DNA from: a virus
Taxonomy: Duplodnaviria > Heunggongvirae > Uroviricota > Caudoviricetes
Reading direction: 5' to 3' (one strand)
Virus record (IMG/VR): IMGVR_UViG_2690316097_000008
DNA: 14,055 nt
Made by a program: the position numbers and the translations under genes. Positions 825 to 13,305 of this stretch are shown in pieces. The number at the start of each line of letters is the position of its first letter. The stretch's first letter is position 1. The notes under the pieces are model-generated. The model saw only the letters and a program-made list of their open reading frames with translations, did no database searches and was not told where the DNA came from.

Positions 825-2678
825 TTATGATGATGCCGGTGCATTTATCTCCAGCACCAGACTTTCTATCTCAACGCCATACGCTGCATTTTTGGTAATA
901 TCCGTCAGCGTCAGCGCATTCAGCCCCAGTGTCAGACTGTCTTTTATGACCTGGAATGCCGGGCCAGCCACTCCATTCAGTTTCGGAGTAACCGTGGCAC
1001 TGCCGGCGGTGAACACCAGCTCCAGCGTCAGCCAGTCGTTACTGTAATTCCCGAACTCGCCCAACTTTGTGTTTCCTGCTTTCTTGTGATGCATCAGATT
1101 CAGTTTGCCGTCTGTGGTCTGGGTGAAGAACGACATCAGGAACGGGTTACCAGTCCCGGTCATCGCCACGACGTCAGGTAACGCTACATCGGTATACAGA
1201 TAAATTCCCAGACCGAACTGGTTGTTGGTCAGTGCGCCTGACAGTCGAAACTTACAGCTCAGTCTGCCACCCCGTGTCAGCAGGGAGACTGCGTCATCCA
1301 CCGGGCGCGTCAGGGACCAGGCTTTATTGCTCTGCTTGGTGATCTTAAATACACCATCTGACAACTGAACTCCGCCATTCTTAATGCTCCAGCCCTGCGC
1401 AGCAGCGTCTCCGGCTGTCGGCAACAGGGAGATTGTGCGTATGGATGCATCTTCAGACGGCCCCGATGGCGTGTCGCCGCCGGGCGAGGGTTTGATTTCC
1501 GGTGCCTTACCACTAATGAAGGCTAAGGTGCGACCGGCTACGTTCAGAATAGCAGTTGCCATACGATCGGGAATAATGCCACGACGCGCCCATGAGCTGA
1601 AATGCGTCGGGCGATTTGATGATACCCAGTTTTTGTTCGTTCGGGATGCCGAACCGTAATAACCAGACCCGGCAATATCAGGATCTTCTGACGGGTTGTT
1701 TGTCGGTGTATTAACTCCGCTACCATCGGTCATAAAGGGAACAAAATAAATCTGCTGGGATTCTTTACCTTTATATGCACCATATACCACTTCATATTGC
1801 GTACCGTGTTCTTGTTTCCACGCGTATGTCGTGTCGCCACAAATCCAGGGGACTGATGCCGGACTTCCACCGTGACACTGCGCCGCCAGCCCGGCAAGGT
1901 CAGCACGGAACTGCTGTACCATTGCAAGAAATGCTGCTGGCTGCTGGGCGTAACTGGCATTCGTCATATCGAATTCCCCCTGCATCCAGCATATCGCCAG
2001 CAAAACGTTTTTCGGGTTTTTCTGCAATGCTGCCTTCGTGCGGAAAAGCAGATCCTGATATAACGGCTTACCCACTCCCCAGCGAGCCGAATCCTGACTG
2101 GCCCCCGTGGACTCGCTGAATGTCCCCTCCGTGCCCTGGGTGAATGCCGAACCACCACAACAGCATGGTACCAGCAGGATCCCCGCATTATTAGGGATAT
2201 ACGGAAGCAGTTTTTTGGCAATATGTAAGCCCTGTCCGACACAGCCGTACTGCCCTTTGCTCAGGTCAGCCCGGGGATGGTTAATCGTACTCATATCCTG
2301 AACATCATGCAGACAATGGTCAGCAGGAATGATGTCGTTAAATACGCATACTTCACCACCGGGAGTCACTGTGTTACGACGGGCCAGTTGCTTAATGCGC
2401 GGATGGGGCGCATCGTATGAATCCGGAAGCGGAAGACCTTCACCGTAAGCCATGGCATTGGATTGCCCGGCCAGTACGATGACGTAGTACCACTCCGGCT
2501 CAGTTGCACCACTGACGACCACATCACCTTCTGCTGCAATCGCCTGCATCAGGGTATAAGGGGTTATGGCCACCGGACTACCAAACGGCTGCCAGCCCTC
2601 CTTCAGTTTTTGTGTCAGTCGTTTCGCAAGGTCTGACGGCGATGCCGCCCTGACCACGTCATAGTGTTTAAATGCCAT
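825..2678 (-). CDS. nanS-p: Prophage sialate 9-O-acetylesterase NanS-p (N-terminal DUF1737-like region plus SGNH/SASA esterase domain)
   Basis: 617-aa ORF with ATG at 2678 and GGGAGGA 5 nt upstream. The block YYVIVLAGQSNAMAYGEGLPLPDSYDAPHPRIKQLARR...DIIPADHCLHDVQDMS...LLVPCCCGGSAFTQG...WMQGEFD matches recalled E. coli NanS/YjhS including the GQSN catalytic motif. Location upstream of the lysis genes is typical for lambdoid and Stx prophages. Confidence 0.9.
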   Translation of the reverse strand: MAFKHYDVVRAASPSDLAKRLTQKLKEGWQPFGSPVAITPYTLMQAIAAEGDVVVSGATEPEWYYVIVLAGQSNAMAYGEGLPLPDSYDAPHPRIKQLARRNTVTPGGEVCVFNDIIPADHCLHDVQDMSTINHPRADLSKGQYGCVGQGLHIAKKLLPYIPNNAGILLVPCCCGGSAFTQGTEGTFSESTGASQDSARWGVGKPLYQDLLFRTKAALQKNPKNVLLAICWMQGEFDMTNASYAQQPAAFLAMVQQFRADLAGLAAQCHGGSPASVPWICGDTTYAWKQEHGTQYEVVYGAYKGKESQQIYFVPFMTDGSGVNTPTNNPSEDPDIAGSGYYGSASRTNKNWVSSNRPTHFSSWARRGIIPDRMATAILNVAGRTLAFISGKAPEIKPSPGGDTPSGPSEDASIRTISLLPTAGDAAAQGWSIKNGGVQLSDGVFKITKQSNKAWSLTRPVDDAVSLLTRGGRLSCKFRLSGALTNNQFGLGIYLYTDVALPDVVAMTGTGNPFLMSFFTQTTDGKLNLMHHKKAGNTKLGEFGNYSNDWLTLELVFTAGSATVTPKLNGVAGPAFQVIKDSLTLGLNALTLTDITKNAAYGVEIESLVLEINAPASS

Positions 2679-2870
2679 GAATCCTCCCGGCCGGGATAAT
2701 ATTGTGAGTAAAATAAGGAGCGGGCTGAAGTCCGGAAGTTACAGGACAATGGCAGAAGAGAGACGACAGCCCGCAATTCGAAAAAGACCGCGCAGTTGCG
2801 CAGAGTGATTACTATGGGGTATTATTCGCCAGCTGAAATATTACTTCACGTTTTATTGTTTATTCCTTGC

Positions 2871-2900
2871 CGCCCGCGTCTCCCAGCGCGGGCTTTTTTT
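2871..2900 (+). terminator. Intrinsic terminator-like hairpin followed by T7 on the plus strand
   Basis: gcccgcg-tctcccag-cgcgggc at 2872..2893 followed by ttttttt at 2894..2900. Confidence 0.45.
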
Positions 2901-2909
2901 GCCCACAAG

Positions 2910-2935
2910 AAAACCCCTCCGGAGAGGGGCTAAAG
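2910..2935 (-). terminator. Terminator-like hairpin (cccctc-cgga-gagggg) with U-rich tail on the minus strand
   Basis: Stem-loop at 2914..2929; the minus-strand transcript reads ...cccctctccggagggg then ttttctt. A near-identical hairpin recurs at 4222..4239. Confidence 0.4.
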
Positions 2936-2987
2936 CCGCGTATCTGTATCATCATGCACATGGTGCCGGGTGCCTCCCGGTGAGTTC

Positions 2988-3111
2988 NNNNNNNNNNNNN
3001 NNNNNNNNNNNNNNNNNNNNNNNNNNNNNNNNNNNNNNNNNNNNNNNNNNNNNNNNNNNNNNNNNNNNNNNNNNNNNNNNNNNNNNNNNNNNNNNNNNNN
3101 NNNNNNNNNNN
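2988..3111. other. Run of N (124 nt), assembly gap or masked sequence
   Basis: Direct observation. It is flanked by sequence repeated at 4264..4288 on one side and by a second nanS-p start on the other. Confidence 1.
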
Positions 3112-3133
3112 CATCATAGTGTTTAAATGCCAT
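3112..3133 (-). pseudogene. 5' end of a second nanS-p-like gene, interrupted by the N run
   Basis: Reverse complement reads ATGGCATTTAAACACTATGATG = MAFKHYD, matching the nanS-p start at 2678..2657, with a GGTGGAAAG RBS-like sequence upstream. Confidence 0.5.
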
Positions 3134-3326
3134 GGTTCTTTCCACCATCTGAAAAATAATTCTTTAAAATACCTGACATGTAATACAGAAAAAACACAAA
3201 ACCATACCTTAAATAAAAACCTGATTATCAAGCAGATATGCATGGATAAACTACAAGACGAGATATAAACCACCCTGCATTTAAATAAACAATAAACAAC
3301 ATCAGAAAAATAATTCTGCTCTATGG

Positions 3327-3353
3327 TTTACATTCAAAAATATCATTTATACT
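3327..3353 (+). promoter_or_regulatory. Candidate sigma70 promoter for the AT-rich plus-strand ORF
   Basis: TTTACA at 3327..3332, 15-nt spacer, TATACT at 3348..3353, about 40 nt upstream of the ATG at 3394. Sequence-only prediction in AT-rich DNA, so the false-positive risk is high. Confidence 0.3.
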
Positions 3354-3393
3354 TTTCAGAACATCACCAGCAAGGCATAAACAAGGAAACTAA

Positions 3394-3729
3394 ATGAAGT
3401 GGATTGTGATTGATACAGTTATCCAGCCATCATGCGGAATATCTTTTTCAGTCATATGGAGTAAAATAAAATTAATAATCTGGTATCAATCGGATGCTTT
3501 CTTACCTCCTGAAAGTATATTTACACTGACTCACACAGGCATCATGCTCAATAACAAAGTGCTACCTGTAACCATTTACAACGTAGTACCATTCAATAAA
3601 ACATTCTGGAATTCAATCAAAAATAGCCAGGAATGCCCTACAAATACAGATAACGTATTGAATGAATGCTTTAATAACCGTTGCACTCTGCAAATATGTC
3701 CTTATGGACTAAAACAACAAAGTCCATAA
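3394..3729 (+). CDS. Hypothetical protein, AT-rich ORF of 111 aa with a Cys-rich C-terminus
   Basis: ORF with AAGGAAA Shine-Dalgarno 6-7 nt before the ATG. It is opposite in orientation to every other prophage gene here and its stop codon lies inside the 3699..3732 hairpin. No recognised family. Confidence 0.4.
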
Positions 3730-3765
3730 GGAGTTTACTCACATCTGACAAAATCAATATAAACA
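3582..3765. repeat. Direct repeat, copy 1 (3' part of the AT-rich ORF plus hairpin); copy 2 at 4046..4217
   Basis: 184 bp near-identical to 4046..4217 except that the hairpin loop is inverted. Copy 2 is preceded by N runs. Confidence 0.9.
3699..3732. repeat. Perfect 12-bp stem hairpin (tccttatggact / agtccataagga) with loop aaaacaacaa
   Basis: Direct observation; the loop is the exact reverse complement of the loop in copy 2. Confidence 0.9.
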
Positions 3766-3977
3766 NNNNNNNNNNNNNNNNNNNNNNNNNNNNNNNNNNN
3801 NNNNNNNNNNNNNNNNNNNNNNNNNNNNNNNNNNNNNNNNNNNNNNNNNNNNNNNNNNNNNNNNNNNNNNNNNNNNNNNNNNNNNNNNNNNNNNNNNNNN
3901 NNNNNNNNNNNNNNNNNNNNNNNNNNNNNNNNNNNNNNNNNNNNNNNNNNNNNNNNNNNNNNNNNNNNNNNNNNNNN
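3766..3977. other. Run of N (212 nt)
   Basis: Direct observation. Confidence 1.
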
Positions 3978-4003
3978 AAAAAGGCCCACCGGAGCGGATG
4001 GGC

Positions 4004-4045
4004 NNNNNNNNNNNNNNNNNNNNNNNNNNNNNNNNNNNNNNNNNN
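4004..4045. other. Run of N (42 nt)
   Basis: Direct observation; the island 3978..4003 between the two N runs carries another ccgga-containing hairpin-like sequence. Confidence 1.
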
Positions 4046-4217
4046 CATTCAATAAAACATTCTGGAATTCAATCAAAAATAGCCAGGAATGCCCTACAAA
4101 TACAGATAACGTATTGAATGAATGCTTTAATAACCGTTGCACTCTGCAAATATGTCCTTATGGACTTTGTTGTTTTAGTCCATAAGGAGTTTACTCACAT
4201 CTGACAAAATCAATATA
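4046..4217. repeat. Direct repeat, copy 2 of 3582..3765
   Basis: Near-identical to copy 1, then followed by the 4222..4239 hairpin. Confidence 0.9.
4155..4188. repeat. Same 12-bp stem hairpin as 3699..3732 but with the loop inverted (ttgttgtttt)
   Basis: Direct observation. Confidence 0.9.
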
Positions 4218-4444
4218 AACAGCCCCTCCGGAGAGGGGCTGGAGAGTGGCGCTATGTGCCATTGCATGGTGCCGGGTGCCTCCCGGTGAATTCAGTACCA
4301 GCACCTGAATCCGCGATTATCCCATATACCTACTCGCTGATTGCCCCTCCGCACAGGGGGATTCACCATGCCAGTTTCTTTTAACAAACTCCCCGCAAAC
4401 CAGACAACAGTCAACCGCCTGAATTGTGAAGTATTTAAAAATTT

Positions 4445-4525
4445 CTCCCGCTAACTGATACCCGGCTAACAGTCTGGCGTTTTCTTTTTCAGCAACGGGA
4501 AAGCAACAACCACCACACCCGCCAC
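4445..4525. repeat. 81-bp direct repeat, copy 1 (copy 2 at 4599..4679), separated by a 73-nt N run
   Basis: ctcccgctaactgatacccggctaacagtctggcgttttctttttcagcaacgggaaagcaacaaccaccacacccgccac occurs twice. Confidence 0.9.
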
Positions 4526-4598
4526 NNNNNNNNNNNNNNNNNNNNNNNNNNNNNNNNNNNNNNNNNNNNNNNNNNNNNNNNNNNNNNNNNNNNNNNNN
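4526..4598. other. Run of N (73 nt)
   Basis: Direct observation. Confidence 1.
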
Positions 4599-4679
4599 CT
4601 CCCGCTAACTGATACCCGGCTAACAGTCTGGCGTTTTCTTTTTCAGCAACGGGAAAGCAACAACCACCACACCCGCCAC
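4599..4679. repeat. 81-bp direct repeat, copy 2
   Basis: Identical to 4445..4525. Confidence 0.9.
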
Positions 4680-4786
4680 CAGCACACCGTCAGCCAGCAC
4701 TGACATTATCCGGCTGCTGCAATGCCATTCACAAAAACAGTAAGCAATCACTTTTTACCGTAACAGGTGATAATCCAGATATGTAT

Positions 4787-5113
4787 CTACCCCAGATGAG
4801 TAATCCGAAGTTCATCCATACCACAGGTCCTGGCTATTCTGTTGTACTCCTGAACAAGAGCAAATAATTCTGAATTAGCAACCATGAACTCATCGCAAAC
4901 CCTCTGTATAGCATCACTATTCAGAATAATAACGTCTCTTCCCGAAAGACGATCAGGAGTACAGAACAAAACTGTCAAACGGCTGAAGGCCTTTGCTCGT
5001 GCTGCATTGACTATATCAATACGCTGCCTAAGGATGAAACACCCCGACGCCTCATCAATATTCACTCTACCCACACCATATGAATGATAAATATTTAATG
5101 CTGAAAAAACCAT
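4787..5113 (-). CDS. Hypothetical ORF in the position occupied by stxAB in Stx phages; coding status uncertain
   Basis: Track ORF 4787..5140 starts at TTG; the first ATG is at 5113. Neither start has a convincing Shine-Dalgarno. Low-GC segment; no recognised family and no resemblance to Shiga toxin subunits as recalled. Confidence 0.3.
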   Translation of the reverse strand: MVFSALNIYHSYGVGRVNIDEASGCFILRQRIDIVNAARAKAFSRLTVLFCTPDRLSGRDVIILNSDAIQRVCDEFMVANSELFALVQEYNRIARTCGMDELRITHLG

Positions 5114-5250
5114 TAGACCGTATAACAAACACTCAATCAATACTTAACAGAACTTTTATTTTTGACAAACATAAAATATTTTCAACAATATCCTGAGCCA
5201 GGTATATTTCAGTATAAGGCTCTGCCGGAAGGAATCTGGAAGAATGAATA

Positions 5251-5327
5251 TGGCGCGCTGTACTGGATTCGAACCAGTGACCGATTGCTTAGAAGGCAAT
5301 TGCTCTGTCCGGCTGAGCTAACAACGC
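5251..5327 (-). tRNA. argO: tRNA-Arg (anticodon UCU)
   Basis: Manual fold of the reverse complement: acceptor GCGTTGT/ACAGCGC, D-stem GCTC/GAGC, anticodon stem ATTGC/GCAAT with loop CTTCTAA, T-arm ACTGG-TTCGAAT-CCAGT, encoded CCA. The symbol is assigned by position in the recalled 933W ileZ-argN-argO order and is tentative. Confidence 0.8.
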
Positions 5328-5340
5328 ATGATGCAGATAA

Positions 5341-5417
5341 TGGACCGCCATCGGGGACTTGAACCCCGCGCAGCCAGCTTCGAAGGCTGGCGCTCTTTCC
5401 TGATGAGCTAATGGCGG
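5341..5417 (-). tRNA. argN: tRNA-Arg (anticodon UCG)
   Basis: Manual fold: acceptor CCGCCAT/ATGGCGG, D-stem GCTC/GAGC, anticodon stem CCAGC/GCTGG with loop CTTCGAA, T-arm CGGGG-TTCAAGT-CCCCG, encoded CCA. Symbol by position and tentative; a C1 5' base is unusual. Confidence 0.7.
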
Positions 5418-5424
5418 TATGTGA

Positions 5425-5500
5425 TGGTGGCCCTTGCTGGATTTGAACCAGCGACCTGGCGATTATGAGTCGCTCGCTCTCACCACTGAGCTAAAGGGCC
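5425..5500 (-). tRNA. ileZ: tRNA-Ile2 (anticodon CAU, lysidine-type; could also be read as tRNA-Met)
   Basis: Reverse complement GGCCCTTTAGCTCAGTGGTGAGAGCGAGCGACTCATAATCGCCAGGTCGCTGGTTCAAATCCAGCAAGGGCCACCA is close to recalled E. coli ileX/ileY; anticodon loop CTCATAA. Confidence 0.8.
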
Positions 5501-5540
5501 GGGAGCCGCATAATAACGACGCGTAATTAATTCTTCAATA

Positions 5541-6599
5541 TCATCCGTTCTGGCTGACTAAATCCTGTACTTCCCGAACCGTCTGCTCAAAACGTTCAGT
5601 CTCCAGCTCAACGCCAATTGCACGACGCCCGAGCGCCAGTGCCGCTTTCACTGTCGAACCCAACCCCATGAAAAAATCTGCAATCAGGTCACCCGGACGA
5701 CTGCTAGCGCTGATTATCTGCTGCAGCATTTCTGCCGGTTTTTCGCACGGATGTTTCCCGGGATAGAACTGCACCGGTTTATGCGTCCACACATCGGTAT
5801 ACGGCACCTGCACCGTCACGCCAAAATACCGCCGCAGATGTTTATATTCACTCAGCAGCTCCGCATACTGCCGGTTCAGTGAGGTATACGTATCCACCAG
5901 CTGGTGGTGGAGCTTTTCCAGTTCACCACGCCGATGCTTCTCTTCTGCCACCCGGGCAAACAGCGCCTGTAATTTCAGATAATCGCTTTCATTCGGCAAC
6001 TGCCACTGACCGGCACTGAACCAGTGCGACACCATGTTTTTCTTTCCTGTGGCATCTGCAATCTGTTTTGCCGTTATCCCCAGGGCAGCTCGCGCATCAC
6101 GAAAGTAAGAAATCAGCGGGGCCATCACATGCTGTTTCAGTGCACTGCCCTTCGCCGCATACCCGGCATCTTTCGGACGATACGGCCCCTGATAATGTTC
6201 CGCGAACAGAATGCGCTCTGTGGCGGGGAAATACGCCCGCAGGCTTTCCTTGTTGCATCCGTTCCAGCGTCCGGACGGCTTCGCCCAGATAATATGGTTC
6301 AGCACACTGAAGCGTTCACGCATCATGATTTCGATATCAGATGCCAGGCGATGACCACAGAACAGGTAAAGACTTCCGGCAGGTTTCAGCACCCGCCAGA
6401 ACTGCGCCAGACACTGGTCCAGCCACTTCAGGTAATCATCGTCGCCCTTCCACTGGTTATCCCAGCCCTCAGGCTTCACTTTAAAGTACGGCGGGTCCGT
6501 GACTATCAGGTCAACAGAATTTTCGGGTAACGACCGGATAAATTCCAGGCAGTCGGCGTTGATTAACTCACAACTGGATATTTTTACAGCATTAAGCAT
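5541..6599 (-). CDS. Orphan DNA methyltransferase (beta-class; N6-adenine or N4-cytosine)
   Basis: 352-aa ORF with ATG start. DLIVTDPPY catalytic motif near the N-terminus and FFMGLGST (FxGxG AdoMet motif) near the C-terminus give the motif IV-before-I order of beta-class amino-MTases. No restriction endonuclease gene is adjacent. Weak Shine-Dalgarno. Confidence 0.85.
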   Translation of the reverse strand: MLNAVKISSCELINADCLEFIRSLPENSVDLIVTDPPYFKVKPEGWDNQWKGDDDYLKWLDQCLAQFWRVLKPAGSLYLFCGHRLASDIEIMMRERFSVLNHIIWAKPSGRWNGCNKESLRAYFPATERILFAEHYQGPYRPKDAGYAAKGSALKQHVMAPLISYFRDARAALGITAKQIADATGKKNMVSHWFSAGQWQLPNESDYLKLQALFARVAEEKHRRGELEKLHHQLVDTYTSLNRQYAELLSEYKHLRRYFGVTVQVPYTDVWTHKPVQFYPGKHPCEKPAEMLQQIISASSRPGDLIADFFMGLGSTVKAALALGRRAIGVELETERFEQTVREVQDLVSQNG

Positions 6600-6691
6600 G
6601 GATCATTAAGCCTGTCTCTGATAGGCTCATTCTGCTTTTGCGCAAAGCAGTGGGCCTGAGGTTTGCTTGTGAACCCAACGCATGAGCAGAT

Positions 6692-6722
6692 GGCTGGTGG
6701 GTGCCCCTAACACCCACCAGCC
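6692..6722 (-). other. Very stable hairpin, 12-bp perfect GC-rich stem with 7-nt loop, in the HTH-MTase intergenic region
   Basis: ggctggtgggtg-cccctaa-cacccaccagcc. No U-tract follows on the minus strand, so it is not a classic intrinsic terminator. Confidence 0.6.
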
Positions 6723-6735
6723 GCCCATTTACCAC

Positions 6736-6763
6736 AAATAAAAAAGCCTTCACTGCGGAAGGC
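6736..6763 (-). terminator. Intrinsic terminator downstream of the small HTH ORF
   Basis: Minus-strand RNA reads gccuuc-cgcagu-gaaggc followed by uuuuuuauuug; the hairpin overlaps the ORF stop codon. Confidence 0.6.
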
Positions 6764-6947
6764 GTCTGTAACAACCGAACTGATAGTCTGCCAGACCCGC
6801 CATAACCAGCTGGGTCAGTATTAACTGGCAGCGTTCGCGTGAAAGGTAAGTATTCTGCGCTATCTCCCCGACTGTCGCCGGTTCGGTAACGCTTAATTCA
6901 TTAAACACCACTCTGGCGGTTTCTGTCATATCCTGCTGTTTTAGCAT
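6750..6947 (-). CDS. Small helix-turn-helix protein (65 aa), putative transcriptional regulator
   Basis: ATG with AAGGAAAAG Shine-Dalgarno 6-7 nt upstream. The segment TVGEIAQNTYLSRERCQLILTQL has HTH character. It lies between the pR'/tR' region and the MTase. Confidence 0.6.
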   Translation of the reverse strand: MLKQQDMTETARVVFNELSVTEPATVGEIAQNTYLSRERCQLILTQLVMAGLADYQFGCYRRLPQ

Positions 6948-7063
6948 GTCTTTTCCTTTTCCGGTTAACGTGACACACCAATAACTCTTGTCGAAAAAGC
7001 CAGCAAGCTGAAAGACAGGTATTCACCGCCACCAGCGCGTTTACTGTACTGACGCGATTTCAG

Positions 7064-7091
7064 TCATAAAAAACCCGCTCGGCGGCGGGTT
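7064..7091 (-). terminator. tR'-like intrinsic terminator about 40-65 nt downstream of the late promoter start site
   Basis: Minus-strand RNA reads aacccgc-cgccga-gcggguu followed by uuuuuuaug (plus-strand hairpin 7072..7091 preceded by ataaaaaa). Confidence 0.6.
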
Positions 7092-7126
7092 GTAGAAACT
7101 CTTCTAACGTCAGGCATAAAACGCCC

Positions 7127-7166
7127 ATCGTTATGACGAATTTACCACAGATTCCGGAAAAATCAA
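7127..7166 (-). promoter_or_regulatory. pR'-like late promoter with lambda-type promoter-proximal pause element (Q utilisation region)
   Basis: Minus strand: -35 TTGATT (7166..7161), 16-nt spacer, -10 TAAATT (7144..7139), then CGTCAT and AACGATGGG at about +1..+9. Recalled lambda pR' is TTGACT...TAAATT TGACTC AACGATGGG. It starts 5 nt after the Q stop codon. Confidence 0.65.
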
Positions 7167-7171
7167 CCTTG

Positions 7172-7993
7172 TTACCTAGTTACCTTTTTTAACTGCCGCT
7201 CAGCCCATGCTTCTTCAATATCAAACCGGGTCACCAGCGCATCATAGAATTTCTTAACTGTTTTTTCCCATGACGCGCGTGTTATCTGGTTTGTCACCTC
7301 GCATATAGCATTAAATGCCTCCGTTGATGGTAGTCTTTCATAGCCACGACCACCACAACGCTGGCAGTCTCTGATAACAGGCATACCACGTTTTACCGAC
7401 TCTTCACGATGAATGGCGACACCACGCCCACGGCAATCCTTACAGGCGGTGGAAACCTCACCCTTTCCGCCACACTCCGGACAGGCAACTTTTACCACCT
7501 CCCTGACTTTTTTCCATTCTTCCCAGTAAGACGGATACACACCTTTCGTACACTTTGCCCATACCGGCGGCTTACCATCCGGATACTGGATCTTGTTTGT
7601 AAAAACCTCGCTTTCAATAAATTTTTTTCCGTGACAGCAGGGGCACTGTTTTTTGCTCGCCGCGCTACGGGCATAATCTTCAAACGCATACGAAGCCATA
7701 ATACGCATCACTGCCGGTTTTATTTCTGCCGGGAGTTTTCTTAACGCCGCCACGCGATCACACCGACTGAGTGCATATTCTGTCAGCAATTCTGTTGCCC
7801 GCTCTCTGTCATTCATACTAATGCCCATTTTCCCAAGGAACGCAGAAACCCCCATCTCAGCCCGATTCTGTGTCATGCCCTGCGCGGCCATCACATCAGT
7901 GATACTCAGCGCATCTTTCGACGTTGAGGCCGATGCATCAGTCAGGCCGGGGGATTTTGGGGAGTAGTATTTCGGTAAATCTTCCAGTTTCAT
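7172..7993 (-). CDS. Q: Late-gene antiterminator Q (QuuQ/Qin-type, zinc-binding), copy 1
   Basis: 273-aa ORF. N-terminus MKLEDLPKYYSPKSP...SITDVMAAQGM and C-terminus ...QLKKVTR match recalled E. coli QuuQ, with several CxxC pairs. Its start overlaps the rusA stop (ATGA) and the pR' promoter follows immediately downstream. Confidence 0.8.
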   Translation of the reverse strand: MKLEDLPKYYSPKSPGLTDASASTSKDALSITDVMAAQGMTQNRAEMGVSAFLGKMGISMNDRERATELLTEYALSRCDRVAALRKLPAEIKPAVMRIMASYAFEDYARSAASKKQCPCCHGKKFIESEVFTNKIQYPDGKPPVWAKCTKGVYPSYWEEWKKVREVVKVACPECGGKGEVSTACKDCRGRGVAIHREESVKRGMPVIRDCQRCGGRGYERLPSTEAFNAICEVTNQITRASWEKTVKKFYDALVTRFDIEEAWAERQLKKVTR

Positions 7994-8095
7994 TTTTTGA
8001 CCTGCCCTTCAAGCATTATGGGATAAATCTTCACCCCCAGACGTCCACCAGATACTGGCTGAGCACGAACGATATTGATTTCATCAAACTGCTCA
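7990..8095 (-). pseudogene. rusA: rusA 3' fragment (about 35 C-terminal codons), cut off by the N run
   Basis: Near-identical to the 3' end of the rusA copies at 8849..8955 and 10592..10700. Confidence 0.6.
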
Positions 8096-8106
8096 NNNNN
8101 NNNNNN
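8096..8106. other. Run of N (11 nt) at a duplication junction
   Basis: Separates the rusA 3' fragment from sequence internal to Q copy 2. Confidence 1.
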
Positions 8107-8852
8107 AATTTCTTAACTGTTTTTTCCCATGACGCGCGTGTTATCTGGTTTGTCACCTCGCATATAGCATTAAATGCCTCCGTTGATGGTAGTCTTTCAT
8201 AGCCACGACCACCACAACGCTGGCAGTCTCTGATAACAGGCATACCACGTTTTACCGACTCTTCACGATGAATGGCGACACCACGCCCACGGCAATCCTT
8301 ACAGGCGGTGGAAACCTCACCCTTTCCGCCACACTCCGGACAGGCAACTTTTACCACCTCCCTGACTTTTTTCCATTCTTCCCAGTAAGACGGATACACA
8401 CCTTTCGTACACTTTGCCCATACCGGCGGCTTACCATCCGGATACTGGACCTTGTTTGTAAAAACTACGCTTTCAATAAATTTTTCCCCATAGCAACAAG
8501 GGCACTGCTTTTTACTCGCTGCGCTGCGGGCATAATCCTCAAAAGCGTACGAAGCCATAATGCGCATCACTACCGGTTTTATTTCTGCCGGAAGTTTTCT
8601 CAACGCCGCCACACGATCGCACCGACTGAGTGCATAATCTGCCAGTAATTCTGTTGCCCGCGCCCTGTCATTCATACTGATGCCCATTTTCCCCAGGAAC
8701 GCAGAAAACCCCATCTCAGCCCGATTCTGTGTCATGCCCTGCGCGGCCATCACATCAGTGATACTCAGCGCATCTTTTGACGTTGAGGCCGATGCATCGG
8801 TCAGGCAAGGGGATTTTGGGGAGTAGTATTTCGGTAAATCTTCCAGTTTCAT
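8107..8852 (-). CDS. Q: Antiterminator Q, copy 2; the last ~25 codons are missing at the N-run junction
   Basis: About 96% amino-acid identity to copy 1 over about 248 residues, with scattered substitutions (G16C, V49F, E64A, H118Y and others), so it is a distinct paralog and not an exact duplicate. The track ORF 8031..8852 reads through the Ns into the rusA fragment. Confidence 0.75.
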
Positions 8853-9223
8853 TTTTTGACCTGCTCTTCATGCATTATGGGGTAAATCTTCACCCCCAGA
8901 CGTCCACCAGATACTGGCTGAGCACGAACGATATTGATTTCATCAAACTGCTCATCGTCCATTAACACTCCCGCATGTGTCAGTGCATCCAGTGGTGCTT
9001 TCAGGATATTGTCCAGGTCACGACGGCGCTTATCCGGTGGCTCTGCAATAATCTTTATCGCCAGTCTTCCGGACAGGCTTAATTTCAGTCGCTGCTGACG
9101 GACAATAAGCGCCACATCCCGGCGATAACGCTCACCGGCTTTTGATACAAAATATGTGTTGTCACGACGTCGCCAGTAAGTATTCACCGTCGGCGGATAA
9201 GGTAAAATAAACTCATGGCGCAT
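8849..9223 (-). CDS. rusA: Holliday junction resolvase RusA
   Basis: 124-aa ORF with ATG start. LPYPPTVNTYWRRR...PDKRRRDLDNILKAPLDALT matches the recalled RusA family including the catalytic Asp cluster. Its stop overlaps the Q start. Confidence 0.85.
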   Translation of the reverse strand: MRHEFILPYPPTVNTYWRRRDNTYFVSKAGERYRRDVALIVRQQRLKLSLSGRLAIKIIAEPPDKRRRDLDNILKAPLDALTHAGVLMDDEQFDEINIVRAQPVSGGRLGVKIYPIMHEEQVKK

Positions 9224-9480
9224 CAGCGCAGCACCTCCTGCACCAGTTTTTCAAACTTTCCGACTCTGGTTTCCAGCTCTGCCACACAGTCCACCAGCTC
9301 ATCTACTGCTTTCTGTGCGCGATGCTTCGCCTGCATCAGTTCCCGAAGCGCGGGTACCATATCTTTACGGATAGCGTCTTTTGTTATGCCCGTTTTTTCG
9401 AGTTGTTCAGCATGACGCAGCATTTCCTGCGCGTGTTTACGCAATTGTTCAGGGGTAAAAGTCATTGTCTGGTTGTTCAA
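9223..9480 (-). CDS. Hypothetical small phage protein, predicted helical
   Basis: Track start at 9480 is TTG with GGAG 9 nt upstream; the first ATG is at 9465 with no Shine-Dalgarno. Its stop overlaps the rusA start by 1 nt. Confidence 0.55.
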   Translation of the reverse strand: MNNQTMTFTPEQLRKHAQEMLRHAEQLEKTGITKDAIRKDMVPALRELMQAKHRAQKAVDELVDCVAELETRVGKFEKLVQEVLR

Positions 9481-9691
9481 AAGAAACGCTCCATCTTACT
9501 GCTGTCAGTTCGTTTATTACTGTATCTGCGCGGATTGCCGGGCTTCATGGGAGTGGAAAGCACCCGTGCACTTTCCTGGTCCACAGGCAGAAAATGTCCG
9601 TAGACTGGCCCCCTGAATCTCCAGACAACCAGTATCACTTAAATAAGTGATAGTCTTAATACTAGTTTTTAGACTAGTCATTGGAGTACAG

Positions 9692-10057
9692 ATGATTGAT
9701 GTCTTAGGGCCGGAGAAACGCAGACGGCGTACCACACAGGAAAAGATCGCAATTGTTCAGCAGAGCTTTGAACCGGGGATGACGGTCTCCCTCGTTGCCC
9801 GGCAACATGGTGTAGCAGCCAGCCAGTTATTTCTCTGGCGTAAGCAATACCAGGAAGGAAGTCTTACTGCTGTCGCCGCCGGAGAACAGGTTGTTCCTGC
9901 CTCTGAACTTGCTGCCGCCATGAAGCAGATTAAAGAACTCCAGCGCCTGCTCGGCAAGAAAACGATGGAAAATGAACTCCTCAAAGAAGCCGTTGAATAT
10001 GGACGGGCAAAAAAGTGGATAGCGCACGCGCCCTTATTGCCCGGGGATGGGGAGTAA
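9692..10057 (+). CDS. insC: IS2 transposase OrfA (InsC)
   Basis: [56 protein letters not shown]... matches recalled IS2 InsC; 121 aa from the ATG at 9692. Confidence 0.9.
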
Positions 10058-10431
10058 GCTTAGTCAGCCGTTGTCTCCGGGTGTCGCGTGCGCAGTTGCA
10101 CGTCATTCTCAGACGAACCGATGACTGGATGGATGGCCGCCGCAGTCGTCACACTGATGATACGGATGTGCTTCTCCGTATACACCATGTTATCGGAGAG
10201 CTGCCCACGTATGGTTATCGTCGGGTATGGGCGCTGCTTCGCAGACAGGCAGAACTTGATGGTATGCCTGCGATCAATGCCAAACGTGTTTACCGGATCA
10301 TGCGCCAGAATGCGCTGTTGCTTGAGCGAAAACCTGCTGTACCGCCATCGAAACGGGCACATACAGGCAGAGTGGCCGTGAAAGAAAGCAATCAGCGATG
10401 GTGCTCTGACGGGTTCGAGTTCTGCTGTGAT
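10015..10431 (+). pseudogene. insD: IS2 transposase OrfB (InsD), N-terminal part only
   Basis: The orfB frame reads ...[44 protein letters not shown]...[14 protein letters not shown] and then meets the N at 10432 and unrelated phage sequence. Confidence 0.75.
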
Positions 10432-10432
10432 N

Positions 10433-10595
10433 TCCCCAGGAACGCAGAAAACCCCATCTCAGCCCGATTCTGTGTCATGCCCTGCGCGGCCATCACATCA
10501 GTGATACTCAGCGCATCTTTCGACGTTGAGGCCGATGCATCAGTCAGGCCGGGGGATTTTGGGGAGTAGTATTTCGGTAAATCTTCCAGTTTCAT
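10433..10595 (-). pseudogene. Q: Antiterminator Q, N-terminal 54-codon fragment (copy 3), abutting the truncated IS2
   Basis: MKLEDLPKYYSPKSPGLTDASASTSKDALSITDVMAAQGMTQNRAEMGFSAFLG; the DNA matches copies 1 and 2 from about 10433 onward. Confidence 0.7.
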
Positions 10596-10972
10596 TTTTT
10601 GACCTGCCCTTCAAGCATTATGGGATAAATCTTCACCCCCAGACGTCCACCAGATACTGGCTGAGCACGAACGATATTGATTTCATCAAACTGCTCATCG
10701 TCCATTAGCAACCCCGCATGCGTCAGCGCATCCAGCGGCGCTTTCAGAATATTGTCCAGGTCACGGCGGCGCTTATCCGGTGGTTCTGCAATAATTTTTA
10801 TTGCCAACCTTCCGGACAGGCTTAATTTCAGCCGCTGCTGGCGAACAATAAGCGCCACTGCCCGGCGATAACGCTCCCCGGCTTTTGATACAAAATATGT
10901 GCTGCCACGACGACGCCAGTAAGTGTTCACCGTCGGCGGGTAAGGTAAAACAAATTCTATGCGCTCGGTCAT
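10592..10972 (-). CDS. rusA: Holliday junction resolvase RusA (second full copy)
   Basis: 126 aa, about 93% identical to the copy at 8849..9223. Its ATG directly follows the stop of the upstream DUF968-like ORF. Confidence 0.85.
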   Translation of the reverse strand: MTERIEFVLPYPPTVNTYWRRRGSTYFVSKAGERYRRAVALIVRQQRLKLSLSGRLAIKIIAEPPDKRRRDLDNILKAPLDALTHAGLLMDDEQFDEINIVRAQPVSGGRLGVKIYPIMLEGQVKK

Positions 10973-12031
10973 TTATGCTTTCCACTTCAGAACACCCGAA
11001 TTTCTCGCGTGCATTAAAAAACGAATCAGCAACAACAGCTGACTGCCGTGTTTCTCTTCAAAATCTTTTACTCCGGCATGTAGTTCGTTACGGCATTTAC
11101 GGCATAACGGAATAACAAACAAATCATCAGCCTTTGTTCCCATCCCTCCCAGTCCATGACCAATGATGTGATGCGGATCATCTGCCTGATTGCCACACGT
11201 CATGCATTTCTGCGTTTTTACCCAGCGCGTGTATACAGGCATCTCTTCCCGTTGTGATTTCTGGCGCTGGAGATACTGAGCCGGTGACTCCGGATCAACG
11301 GCAATGCTGACCACCGTCTTTTCCTGTGGTGGGTTCTGTTGCTGGTGGACGTGAGGCAGTAACGCAATATTTTTTGTGCGCTGCTTCAGTATGCTGGTGG
11401 CTGTCTGCTCTCCCGGTATGATGTCGCTTTCACTGTACACAGAGCGAATTTTTTCCGCACGCAACCCCAGCGAACGACGTAATACCGCTTCCGGTAGCGC
11501 GTCCGCCACCTGATTGCGGACCGCCCACCAGGATAATTCAGCCAGAGATAATTCACGCTCCTGCGTACCGCTTATTGCGTGACCGATGACGTCAATCATC
11601 CATGCTGACAGGTTTTGATGAGCAAGTTGCTCGAGTGATTCGGATGTCTGGTCACGCAGCTGGTTGTCGCAGTGCCAGCACAACACCATTGCGCCGGTAC
11701 CATAACGGTGAATGACGGTTTCGCTGTGATGATAATCGCCGTGTGGCCACTGGCAGGATTTAATATGGCGCAACAGCCAGTCAGACAATGCACCAGCACC
11801 ACCAGCAGCACGAATCACCCGTGCGTTACTGAAAAACGGCAGCAATGTTTTGTCTTCCACCAGCGGCTGGCGAGCGGCAGGAACGACCCCGGACGGCAGA
11901 TTACGCATGCTTTTTGGTTCCGGCTCCACCAGTATTCTGCCGTTATGGAATGCTGACATTGATTCACGGCCTGGCTTAACGATAACCAGACCGAGTTCCG
12001 GTACCAGAACAGGTCGAAGTAATACCCGCAC
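10973..12031 (-). CDS. Lambdoid prophage DUF968-family protein (YdfU-like) with a C-terminal Cys/His HNH-like motif
   Basis: 352-aa ORF. The C-terminus CMTCGNQADDPHHIIGHGLGG...LCRKCRNELH is zinc-finger/HNH-like. Position upstream of rusA-Q matches the Qin ydfU position. The start codon is GTG with GGAGG 4 nt upstream and overlaps the upstream ORF stop. Confidence 0.7.
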   Translation of the reverse strand: MRVLLRPVLVPELGLVIVKPGRESMSAFHNGRILVEPEPKSMRNLPSGVVPAARQPLVEDKTLLPFFSNARVIRAAGGAGALSDWLLRHIKSCQWPHGDYHHSETVIHRYGTGAMVLCWHCDNQLRDQTSESLEQLAHQNLSAWMIDVIGHAISGTQERELSLAELSWWAVRNQVADALPEAVLRRSLGLRAEKIRSVYSESDIIPGEQTATSILKQRTKNIALLPHVHQQQNPPQEKTVVSIAVDPESPAQYLQRQKSQREEMPVYTRWVKTQKCMTCGNQADDPHHIIGHGLGGMGTKADDLFVIPLCRKCRNELHAGVKDFEEKHGSQLLLLIRFLMHARNSGVLKWKA

Positions 12032-12032
12032 A

Positions 12033-12311
12033 TTACCTCCAGATCCGTTGCTGGAATGTGCGGGACGGACGCGTTGGCCGTTCGGAGTAAGGGAGCCTGA
12101 CGGAGATTATCCAGTGACGGTAGTCGAGGCTAAGGGCTTTTTTAACCTCGCATCCGCGCCTGCGGTAACACTGAATGAGCCATTCGGCCTGTTCTTCAGT
12201 GCATGGGGGATGCTGGTACCAATCAGATTTAAATGCGTGAGAGCGCCGCCCGTGCCTGCTGGCAAAGACGGCTGAATTATCAGAATTGTGTAGTCTGGAA
12301 TTTTGCGCCAT
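12033..12311 (-). CDS. Hypothetical Arg-rich small protein (92 aa)
   Basis: ATG with GGAGAAAG Shine-Dalgarno; translationally coupled to the DUF968-like ORF. No family recognised. Confidence 0.5.
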   Translation of the reverse strand: MAQNSRLHNSDNSAVFASRHGRRSHAFKSDWYQHPPCTEEQAEWLIQCYRRRGCEVKKALSLDYRHWIISVRLPYSERPTRPSRTFQQRIWR

Positions 12312-12377
12312 CGGCTTTCTCCGGTGGCACAGTGTTACTCAACAGGGGTTCAGCCCTGCGCTGAATTGTAGATGAAT

Positions 12378-12858: not shown

Positions 12859-13014
12859 TTACTCCTCAGGTTCGTAAGCTGTGAAGACAGCGACCTCCGT
12901 CTGGCCGGTTCGAATTCGTACCTCGCAGAGGTCTTTCCTCGTTACCAGTGCCGTCACTATGACGGTTAAACAGATGACGATCAGGGCGATTAACATCGCC
13001 TTTTGCTGCTTCAT
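12859..13014 (-). CDS. hokD: Hok/Gef-family type I toxin, HokD (RelF)-like, 51 aa
   Basis: MKQQKAMLIALIVICLTVIVTALVTRKDLCEVRIRTGQTEVAVFTAYEPEE matches recalled E. coli HokD. AGGAG lies 9 nt upstream of the ATG at 13014. The track ORF extends in frame to an ATG at 13071 with its own GAGG. Confidence 0.85.
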   Translation of the reverse strand: MKQQKAMLIALIVICLTVIVTALVTRKDLCEVRIRTGQTEVAVFTAYEPEE

Positions 13015-13305
13015 AGCCTGCTTCTCCTTGCCTTTCGGCACGTAAGAGGCTAACCTAGATTTGCCGTTCATAGATTGAGCCTCAGATTAATGTTAAGCGT
13101 CTTGCCGGACGCGTAATGTTAACTGGGGCTTTTCTCTATCTGCCTTTTGGTGTTCATGCCTGAGACAGATAGCCTCAAGCACCCGCTGCAATTCTACTTA
13201 ACTCTCCTTTTCCCGCAAACCGTTTTTATCCCCAGCGGCAAATCGAATACACCACCAGCGCCACCGCCATCGCAATTCCTACCGTTGTTAATGCTTCAGG
13301 CCAGG

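Follow-up and report, generated by a model that had tools for sequence, protein, structure and literature searches.

The late region of the 14,055-nt viral DNA analyzed here (IMG/VR record IMGVR_UViG_2690316097_000008, referred to in full as the window) raises the question of what occupies the position at which Stx2-converting phages carry stx2AB. The original prediction placed an undescribed payload in this slot, expressed with the late genes and partly hidden by runs of N. The comparison with finished genomes reveals that the slot is very likely the known iraL/STnc100 cassette of lambdoid E. coli prophages, enlarged by a scaffold that strings two alleles together serially.

The late-gene order (Q, DNA methylase, tRNA trio, slot, nanS-p and holin) is confirmed by Pfam and ARAGORN, with all genes on the minus strand. 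The Q antiterminator (7172-7993, Pfam Antiterm) is separated from the tRNAs by an N6/N4 DNA methyltransferase (5541-6599, Pfam PF01555), which is found in the same place in O104:H4. The tRNA trio (5251-5500), which forms the upstream boundary of the slot, consists of tRNA-Met/Ile(CAT) at 5425-5500, tRNA-Arg(TCG) at 5341-5417 and tRNA-Arg(TCT) at 5251-5327, all identified by both ARAGORN and Rfam. The downstream boundary is a nanS-p-type esterase of 617 aa with DUF1737, SASA and DUF6645 domains (825-2678, Pfam), followed by a P21-type holin (459-752, Pfam) and DUF1327/YdfR (140-454, Pfam). The order of the Q antiterminator, tRNA trio, esterase and holin on a single strand is of the Stx-phage type, and the slot flanks have homologous counterparts in Stx2 phages, which supports its placement at the stx position: in phage Lyz12581Vzw, for example, stx2A/stx2B is bracketed by sequences that match the nanS-p start and the tRNA-Arg flank of the window. 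As originally noted, stx itself is absent. No stx-sized ORF is present in 2700-5250, no stxA or stxB was found between the tRNAs and nanS-p, where the longest ORF is at most 137 aa, and the sole annotations in finished counterparts of the slot are IraM, DUF3927 and a pseudo-ORF. The four N runs of the slot and its enrichment in terminator-like hairpins (10 observed, 2.7 expected) are also evident. A weak OmrA-B match at 2812-2900 (25 bits) falls under the gathering score of 40 and was dismissed.

The AT-rich ORF on the plus strand (3394-3729, 34.5% GC) exists as described, and its 111-aa product is the RssB anti-adaptor IraL, with 110 of 111 residues identical to the CFT073 protein. The product scores 162 bits against NCBIfam NF007393 (cutoff 121), matches the IraM of PDB 8TWD with an E value of 6e-31 and shares 61% identity with K-12 IraM. 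IraL is distinguished from IraM by an identity of at least 95% to CFT073 iraL and approximately 59-61% to K-12 IraM (PMC4045071), and by these values the slot protein is an IraL and not an IraM. K-12 IraM (b1160, beside the e14 element) and the 8TWD protein belong to the same family as the slot IraL; however, the genomic context of K-12 IraM is unlike that of the slot gene. According to PMC10844676, IraM is induced by Mg2+ starvation.

The similarity to CFT073 extends beyond the coding sequence. A 654-nt segment containing iraL is 99.1% identical to CFT073, and positions 3361-3392 agree at 31 of 32 nt with the 5'-RACE-mapped start of the CFT073 iraL mRNA (PMC4045071), which by homology places the transcription start at 3361, within a promoter and 5' UTR region (3348-3392, plus strand) whose -10 element is TATACT (3348-3353). 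In uropathogenic E. coli CFT073, iraL occupies this very slot in the potB prophage; a sigma-70 promoter of its own drives its expression in log phase, and IraL binds RssB and stabilizes sigma-S (PMC4045071). Because the protein encoded here is 99% identical to that of CFT073, it would likewise be expected to bind RssB and stabilize sigma-S. The expression of the cargo with the late genes does not apply to iraL, which lies on the opposite strand and has its own sigma-70 promoter. Nor is an uncharacterized cargo supported: the 111-aa ORF is a gene experimentally characterized in CFT073. A full-length STnc100 sRNA and a DUF3927 ORF had also been missed.

STnc100 is located at 4400-4211 on the minus strand and matches Rfam RF02076 over model positions 1-206 of 206, scoring 132.4 bits (gathering score 47). 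It ends in an intrinsic terminator (4241-4220, minus strand) with a 9-bp GC-rich stem followed by a T-rich tail, which is arranged back to back with the hairpin of iraL. STnc100 is a prophage-borne base-pairing sRNA; the locus belongs to this family, and its RNA product is predicted. PasA and PasD, relatives and neighbors of STnc100, are tied to esterase genes in lambdoid/Stx-type prophages (Zhu, Shabalina and Storz, bioRxiv 2026, 10.64898/2026.05.13.724894), and the esterase-adjacent location of the full-length match to the STnc100/PasD sRNAs in the window fits this preprint. The DUF3927 gene (4620-4751, minus strand) encodes a small protein of 43 aa with a hydrophobic core, which matches Pfam PF13064 (95.6 bits, cutoff 25) and phrog_1470 and is annotated by PGAP in three comparison loci (L001, L006 and L014).

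The sole uncharacterized piece of the slot is ORF92, a 92-aa ORF with a GTG start (5065-4787, minus strand), which is the first CDS past the tRNAs on the late strand. A low-GC ORF of 117 or 108 aa had been reported here. A minus-strand ORF ending at 4787 does exist, but in-frame conservation is confined to a core of 92 aa that starts with the GTG at 5065, and its GC content is only mildly low (44%, versus 49% for the window). The ORF matches phrog_2873 over profile positions 1-108 of 108 (E 3.8e-70), with in-frame conservation across clades limited to residues 17-108. ORF92 DNA has matches in 1,314 of 5,426 finished E. coli genomes (24%), and the frame is intact in 81 of 82 loci.

One explanation treats ORF92 as a chance ORF in conserved noncoding DNA, such as a leader or processing region 3' of the tRNAs. 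This would explain the missing PGAP call, as ORF92 is not annotated by RefSeq in the ten high-identity finished-genome rows sampled or in L001, L006 and L014, and it is in keeping with the GTG start, the weak Shine-Dalgarno-like sequence that precedes it and the lack of a family annotation. However, the in-frame dN/dS is 0.25-0.27 in three inter-clade pairs, compared with approximately 0.85-1.25 in the other frames, and third-position differences are approximately twice as numerous as those at the first or second position. Not one indel is present over the 92 codons at an amino-acid identity of 59-63%, whereas the upstream extension contains frame-breaking indels. Relatives detected by HMMER are 91-95 aa long with 33-44% identity, and the AF2 model, a two-helix hairpin, is confident (pLDDT 88). 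A chance ORF is thus rather improbable, and ORF92, judged by its substitution pattern, is under purifying selection. ORF92 is probably a genuine, translated coiled-coil hairpin protein of 92 aa at the stx position, which it occupies in roughly one in four finished E. coli genomes, those of CFT073 and O104:H4 among them.

Searches with ORF92 yield few further clues. The window protein has no match in Pfam, NCBIfam or PADLOC; across all family members, Pfam searches with E values up to 1 return just scattered single-member noise, and one distant member has a single weak PADLOC match (E 0.009). The family profile retrieves nothing credible from the PDB sequences, the best match being a designed coiled coil (E 0.004). 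When the AF2 model is compared with PDB and BFVD by Foldseek, only generic helical hairpins with E values of 0.1 or worse are retrieved; these matches include prefoldin beta, the EmrA hairpin and BAR domains. Among 50,697 phage records searched by tblastn with the 108-aa form, the sole match is mEp460_ev081, and curated phage genomes therefore give no help on the context of ORF92; a scan of species-representative genomes using a narrower alignment yielded only two loci. ORF92 is most likely a cytoplasmic two-helix coiled-coil hairpin that would act by binding another protein.

The slot had been described as 2.5 kb in length, but the best finished-genome matches shrink the query to 1,636 bp, and the true IraL-type slot is approximately 1.5 kb in finished genomes. 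A query coverage of at least 80% is reached by none of the 2,981 matching records and by no finished E. coli genome. The draft scaffold appears to have placed contigs of two slot alleles end to end with N spacers between them: allele A would be the IraL-less type of E. coli H3 (L005), and allele B the IraL-bearing type of CFT073 and O104:H4 (L006). We infer from the mapping to other genomes that two prophage alleles coexist in this strain. Once mapped to finished genomes, the flanks of every N run overlap or interleave. Positions 3112-3765, 4046-4525 and 4599-5540 map to the overlapping L001 coordinates 6058-6711, 6536-7015 and 6935-7876, respectively, and their O104:H4 and CFT073 mappings likewise overlap. 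The IraL-less slot of H3 is collinear with 203-2987 (99.4% identity, including the nanS-p-type esterase), 3978-4003 (100%), 4218-4441 (98.2%) and 5238 onward (95.4%).

N run 1 (2988-3111) joins the allele-A contig to the allele-B contig and is not an intra-locus gap. On the allele-A side (203-2987, corresponding to L005 1404-4188), it cuts a second STnc100 copy, of which the 3' 87 nt remain (2901-2987, minus strand) with a terminator-like hairpin at 2931-2912; the H3 counterpart at L005 4102-4311 scores 161 bits. The allele-B contig starts with a duplicate of the first 22 nt of the nanS-p CDS (3112-3133, minus strand), with 3112-3765 corresponding to L006 2124-2777, within which the esterase CDS ends at 2145. 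The apparent second nanS-p start is where a contig of the other allele ends. N run 2 (3766-3977) and N run 3 (4004-4045) enclose a 26-nt island (3978-4003) that is identical to L005 4379-4404 and contains the terminator hairpin of allele A, with a minus-strand terminator-like site at 4003-3984. The sequence after N run 3 (4046-4221, plus strand) is a scaffolding duplicate of 3590-3765, the 3' end of iraL, and both copies map to the same L001 and L006 coordinates. N run 4 (4526-4598) lies between identical 81-nt copies, and no sequence is missing there, judging from the overlap of its flanks in L001 (6536-7015 and 6935-7876).

The tandem repeats of the original prediction are exact duplicates that straddle N runs (3590-3710 and 4046-4166, 3721-3765 and 4177-4221, 4445-4525 and 4599-4679), and TRF detects no real array. 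The duplicates flanking the N runs of the slot end exactly at those runs and are 100% identical, apart from the copy of the iraL hairpin. This pattern is seen again at Q (7066-8095 versus 8107-9226), where a second Q copy (8031-8852) with overlapping mappings is a scaffolding duplicate beyond an 11-N run, and once more at 10433. The iraL hairpin is a perfect inverted repeat that overlaps the stop codon (3699-3732, plus strand), and its second copy (4155-4188) has an inverted loop. Of 5,426 finished genomes, 1,419 carry the iraL 3' segment, and all of these lack the inverted loop. A real C-terminal variant of IraL (KQQ to CCF) was rejected on this basis; the loop is more likely artefactual or a rare variant at the read level. 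Because the arms are only 12 nt, the inverted copy does not arise from simple k-mer collapse and may reflect real heterogeneity among the reads.

The contig ends of the IraL allele overlap across the gaps, which leaves no hidden payload there. The gaps of allele A stand for approximately 380 nt, which in the finished genome comprise the rest of the STnc100 copy and intergenic sequence, and the N-run lengths (124, 212, 42 and 73) differ from the missing allele-A lengths (approximately 190 and 192 nt). Deliberate masking of real sequence was considered for the N runs and rejected, since their flanks are either duplicates or interleaved. The original prediction had itself named a collapsed assembly of ordinary prophage sequence as evidence against its claim, and this is in substance what the finished genomes reveal. 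An undescribed, late-expressed moron payload lying partly under the N runs is consequently very improbable: the slot coincides with the stx position and ORF92 has neither an assigned function nor a Pfam, NCBIfam, PADLOC or PDB match, but the largest ORF is the characterized iraL, antisense to the late operon with its own promoter, STnc100 and DUF3927 belong to catalogued families, and the sequences beside the gaps overlap or correspond to finished alleles, with no space for more genes. A real local duplication of the iraL 3' end, the DUF3927 region and the nanS-p start, with the Ns as ordinary unresolved sequence, is hardly credible either, for although the hairpin copies are not byte-identical and template switching at quasi-palindromes is a known source of mutations, such an arrangement or inverted loop occurs in none of the 5,426 finished genomes, the other copies are 100% identical and stop exactly at N runs, and the recurrence at Q and 10433 points to a scaffolding habit and not to local biology.

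The cassette reading is consistent with known prophages. The CFT073 potB prophage (Hryckowian et al. 2014, mBio, PMC4045071) has the same gene order as the window: Q, tRNA-Ile/Arg/Arg, an unannotated ORF92 stretch, DUF3927, a PGAP pseudo-ORF, iraL, nanS-p/DUF1737, holin, YdfR and lysozyme. It differs in carrying an IS200, and not the DNA methylase of the window, between Q and the tRNAs, and in having only a truncated DUF1737 remnant of nanS-p in place of the full 617-aa esterase. The non-Stx lambdoid prophage of O104:H4 (NZ_CP027394, L006) shares the complete gene arrangement with methylase and 617-aa esterase, in the order Q, hypothetical, methylase, tRNAs, ORF92, DUF3927, STnc100, iraL, esterase and holin, and 4599-8094 of the window is 95.3% identical to it; unlike the window, its slot of approximately 1.5 kb contains one clean copy of each segment. 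Stx2-converting phages (933W/Sp5 type, e.g., Lyz12581Vzw) share the frame of Q, tRNA trio, nanS-p and holin with homologous slot flanks, but carry stx2AB where the window has ORF92, DUF3927, STnc100 and iraL.

The real IraL-type slot would thus run along the late strand from the tRNAs through ORF92, DUF3927 and STnc100, followed by iraL on the opposite strand and then nanS-p. This order recurs in the great majority of the 82 IMG/VR and genome loci; most of the deviating loci end at a contig edge, and three have a different order. ORF92 and DUF3927, which are 35 nt apart and in the same direction as the late genes, may be transcribed by Q-antiterminated read-through, and a weak promoter-like site at 5185-5158 perhaps also drives them.

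For draft scaffolds of poly-lysogenic E. coli, these results are a caution that alleles of one slot can be interleaved, mimicking an enlarged, repeat-rich locus. The cassette itself is already known: iraL has been in the literature since 2014, and the STnc100 family of prophage sRNAs is catalogued. The cassette indicates that non-Stx prophages use the stx position for a regulatory cassette (iraL and STnc100) that rewires the general stress response of the host. Should ORF92 be produced upon prophage induction or by the lysogen, it would represent a conversion factor or late accessory factor that is very common yet overlooked, with links to DUF3927, STnc100 and iraL.

A comparison of the slot, the stretch between the late-operon tRNAs and nanS-p (approximately 2700-5250), with finished genomes indicates that the scaffold is composed of two interleaved slot alleles, presumably derived from two lambdoid prophages in one strain. 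Three blocks (3112-3765, 4046-4525 and 4599-5540) map to 6058-6711, 6536-7015 and 6935-7876 of the NZ_CP026723 locus (L001), which reveals an iraL-carrying allele broken into three contigs with end overlaps of 176 and 81 nt; overlapping contig ends are also seen against O104:H4 and CFT073. The other pieces are collinear with an IraL-less allele in the E. coli H3 locus (L005): 203-2987 with 1404-4188 (99.4%), a 26-nt island at 3978-4003 with 4379-4404 (100%), 4218-4441 with 4597-4820 (98.2%), and 5238 onward with 4843 onward (95.4%). Among 2,981 matching E. coli records, none spans at least 80% of the 2.7-kb query, which the best matches compress to 1,636 bp. The slot owes its size, repeats and N runs to a scaffolding artefact.

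The anatomy in the original prediction is real, but its interpretation is largely wrong, the oddities being assembly artefacts. The slot has four N runs (2988-3111, 3766-3977, 4004-4045 and 4526-4598), and the supposed repeats are exact copies that flank N runs, namely 3590-3710 and 4046-4166, 3721-3765 and 4177-4221, and 4445-4525 and 4599-4679; Tandem Repeats Finder detects no real array. The apparent second nanS-p start (3112-3133) is simply where the IraL-allele contig begins. The Ns do not hide a payload, as nothing is missing under them in the IraL allele, and in the H3-type allele they stand for about 190 + 192 nt, occupied in the finished genome by what is left of an STnc100 copy and by intergenic sequence. 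The same pattern recurs elsewhere: Q occurs at 7172-7993 and 8031-8852, in blocks 7066-8095 and 8107-9226 across an 11-N run (8096-8106), RusA occurs at 8849-9223 and 10592-10972, and a third restart (block 10433-12332) follows a single N at 10432. Because the successive blocks of 7066-9226 and 10433-12332 map to overlapping coordinates of one finished prophage, the whole window is not one contiguous locus but a scaffold in which at least two or three lambdoid prophages are interleaved. An IS3-family transposase pair (9647-10569; HTH_Tnp_1 orfA, 9647-10057; HTH_21 start of orfB, 10015-10569), cut by the N at 10432, sits between two copies of the RusA/Q region.

The predicted late-gene order is borne out on the minus strand, which carries Q (7172-7993), an N6/N4 DNA methyltransferase (5541-6599), three tRNAs (CAT anticodon, 5425-5500, tRNA-Ile according to PGAP in finished genomes; Arg-TCG, 5341-5417; Arg-TCT, 5251-5327), the slot, a 617-aa nanS-p-type esterase with DUF1737, SASA and DUF6645 (825-2678), a P21-type holin (459-752) and a DUF1327/YdfR protein (140-454), with a lysozyme gene start at the left edge of the window. 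The slot is the positional homologue of the stxAB slot, since its flanks match those of stx2A/stx2B in Stx2 phages. No ORF in the slot exceeds 137 aa, and stx is therefore absent, as predicted. The interval between Q and the methylase contains two strong intrinsic-terminator-like hairpins (6746-6763 and 7072-7091, minus strand), one of which should be tR' of the late operon; a simple scan of 6500-7250 did not pick up a sigma-70 consensus promoter. A hok/sok type I toxin-antitoxin (12859-13184; Hok/Gef ORF, 12859-13071, minus strand, Pfam 81.6 bits; Sok antisense RNA, 13009-13184, Rfam 112 bits) occupies the usual hokD position of these prophages.

The cassette in the slot is stereotyped. Through ORF92, a 92-aa GTG-start ORF, 82 loci were recovered (80 from IMG/VR and two from genome contigs), in which the recurrent order is tRNAs > ORF92 > DUF3927 > STnc100 < iraL > nanS-p; most deviations are contig-edge ends, and three loci have a different order. 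This cargo, described as uncharacterised in the original prediction, is already known and widespread, with iraL, STnc100 and DUF3927 (43 aa, 4620-4751, minus strand, Pfam 95.6 bits) all identified.

The gene iraL (3394-3729, plus strand, 34.5% GC) encodes a 111-aa product that exceeds the cutoff of 121 for NCBIfam NF007393 "anti-adapter protein IraM" with 162 bits, shares 61% identity with K-12 IraM and matches the CFT073 protein in the same position at 110/111 residues. The CFT073 gene was named by Hryckowian et al. 2014 (PMC4045071), where the mRNA 5' end was mapped; 31 positions of the published 32-nt 5' sequence match window 3361-3392, and a -10 hexamer, TATACT, is located at 3348-3353. 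The "potB genomic island" to which iraL was assigned in CFT073 (PMC4045071) is, from the RefSeq annotation, a lambdoid prophage, and iraL occupies precisely this slot in it. In growing cells, IraL blocks RssB, which spares RpoS from ClpXP (PMC4045071). Others have shown that iraL, which lies antisense to the late operon under a promoter of its own, is a lysogenic-conversion gene rather than a late-operon passenger, so the expectation that the cargo is expressed with the late genes fails for it. The iraL stop codon is overlapped by a terminator hairpin (3699-3732), the second copy of which (4155-4188) has identical 12-nt arms and an inverted loop that would turn the IraL C-terminus GLKQQSP into GLCCFSP. 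This form is found in none of the 1,419 finished E. coli genomes carrying the segment (best identity 91.1%); either it is an artefact or the reads contain a rare template-switch variant.

STnc100 (4400-4211, minus strand), overlooked in the original prediction, covers the full Rfam model RF02076 at 132.4 bits (gathering score 47) and has its own terminator at 4241-4220; family membership suggests a base-pairing sRNA. A 2026 Storz laboratory preprint (10.64898/2026.05.13.724894) presents STnc100 as a PasD-related prophage sRNA and links PasA and PasD to genes for esterases. The H3-type allele contains two copies, and the 3' end of one of them makes up window 2901-2987. A partial pseudo "hypothetical protein" called by PGAP in finished genomes (window 4256-4384, plus strand; L001, 6746-6871; O104:H4 locus L006, 2812-2937; CFT073 locus L014, 23270-23395) lies antisense inside STnc100, so the call is probably a spurious one made across an RNA gene.

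ORF92 (4787-5065, minus strand, GTG at 5065) is the conserved core of the predicted 117/108-aa ORF, which matches phrog_2873 (E 3.8e-70); in-frame conservation is limited to these 92 codons, and the extension upstream of the GTG is broken by frame-breaking indels in alignment with a divergent clade. The ORF is intact in 81/82 loci, the GTG and exactly 92 codons are kept in three clades at 59-63% amino-acid identity, dN/dS across these clades is 0.25-0.27 in frame versus 0.85-1.25 off frame, and third-position differences are approximately twice those at other positions. An exhaustive HMMER search returned only 20 cluster representatives, including 91-95 aa members at 33-44% identity. A relative on the 2.7-kb contig JAEWMQ010000075.1 (62% identity, GTG start, 92 codons) is binned as a "Bacillota bacterium" MAG; the contig is probably a mis-binned enterobacterial phage fragment, because the distribution of ORF92 is otherwise enterobacterial. 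In other E. coli prophages (loci L008, 2933-5360; L012, 3969-5062; and L009-L013), the same slot contains the divergent clade (59-61% amino-acid identity), directly downstream of a 241-aa AraC-type (HTH_18) regulator and upstream of DUF1737/nanS-p. An IS3-family insertion sometimes separates the regulator from ORF92, and in L012 Q is immediately followed by a PemK-type toxin gene.

The confident AlphaFold model of ORF92 (pLDDT 88) has two long helices with a short beta tip between them. Fold and sequence searches returned generic coiled-coil hairpins only, with no functional clue, and sources name the product "hypothetical protein"; its likely mode of action is that of a small coiled coil binding another protein. 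On the late strand, ORF92 and DUF3927 are separated by 35 nt and would be transcribed by Q-dependent read-through past the tRNAs, perhaps with additional initiation at a weak promoter-like site nearby (5185-5158). Of 5,426 finished E. coli genomes, 1,314 contain a match to ORF92 DNA (near-identical main clade in about 1,185, divergent or partial in the others), and every high-identity record sampled, CFT073 and O104:H4 among them, lacks its annotation. The residual interest of the slot is limited to ORF92, which is common, under selection and, in the records sampled, absent from the RefSeq annotation.
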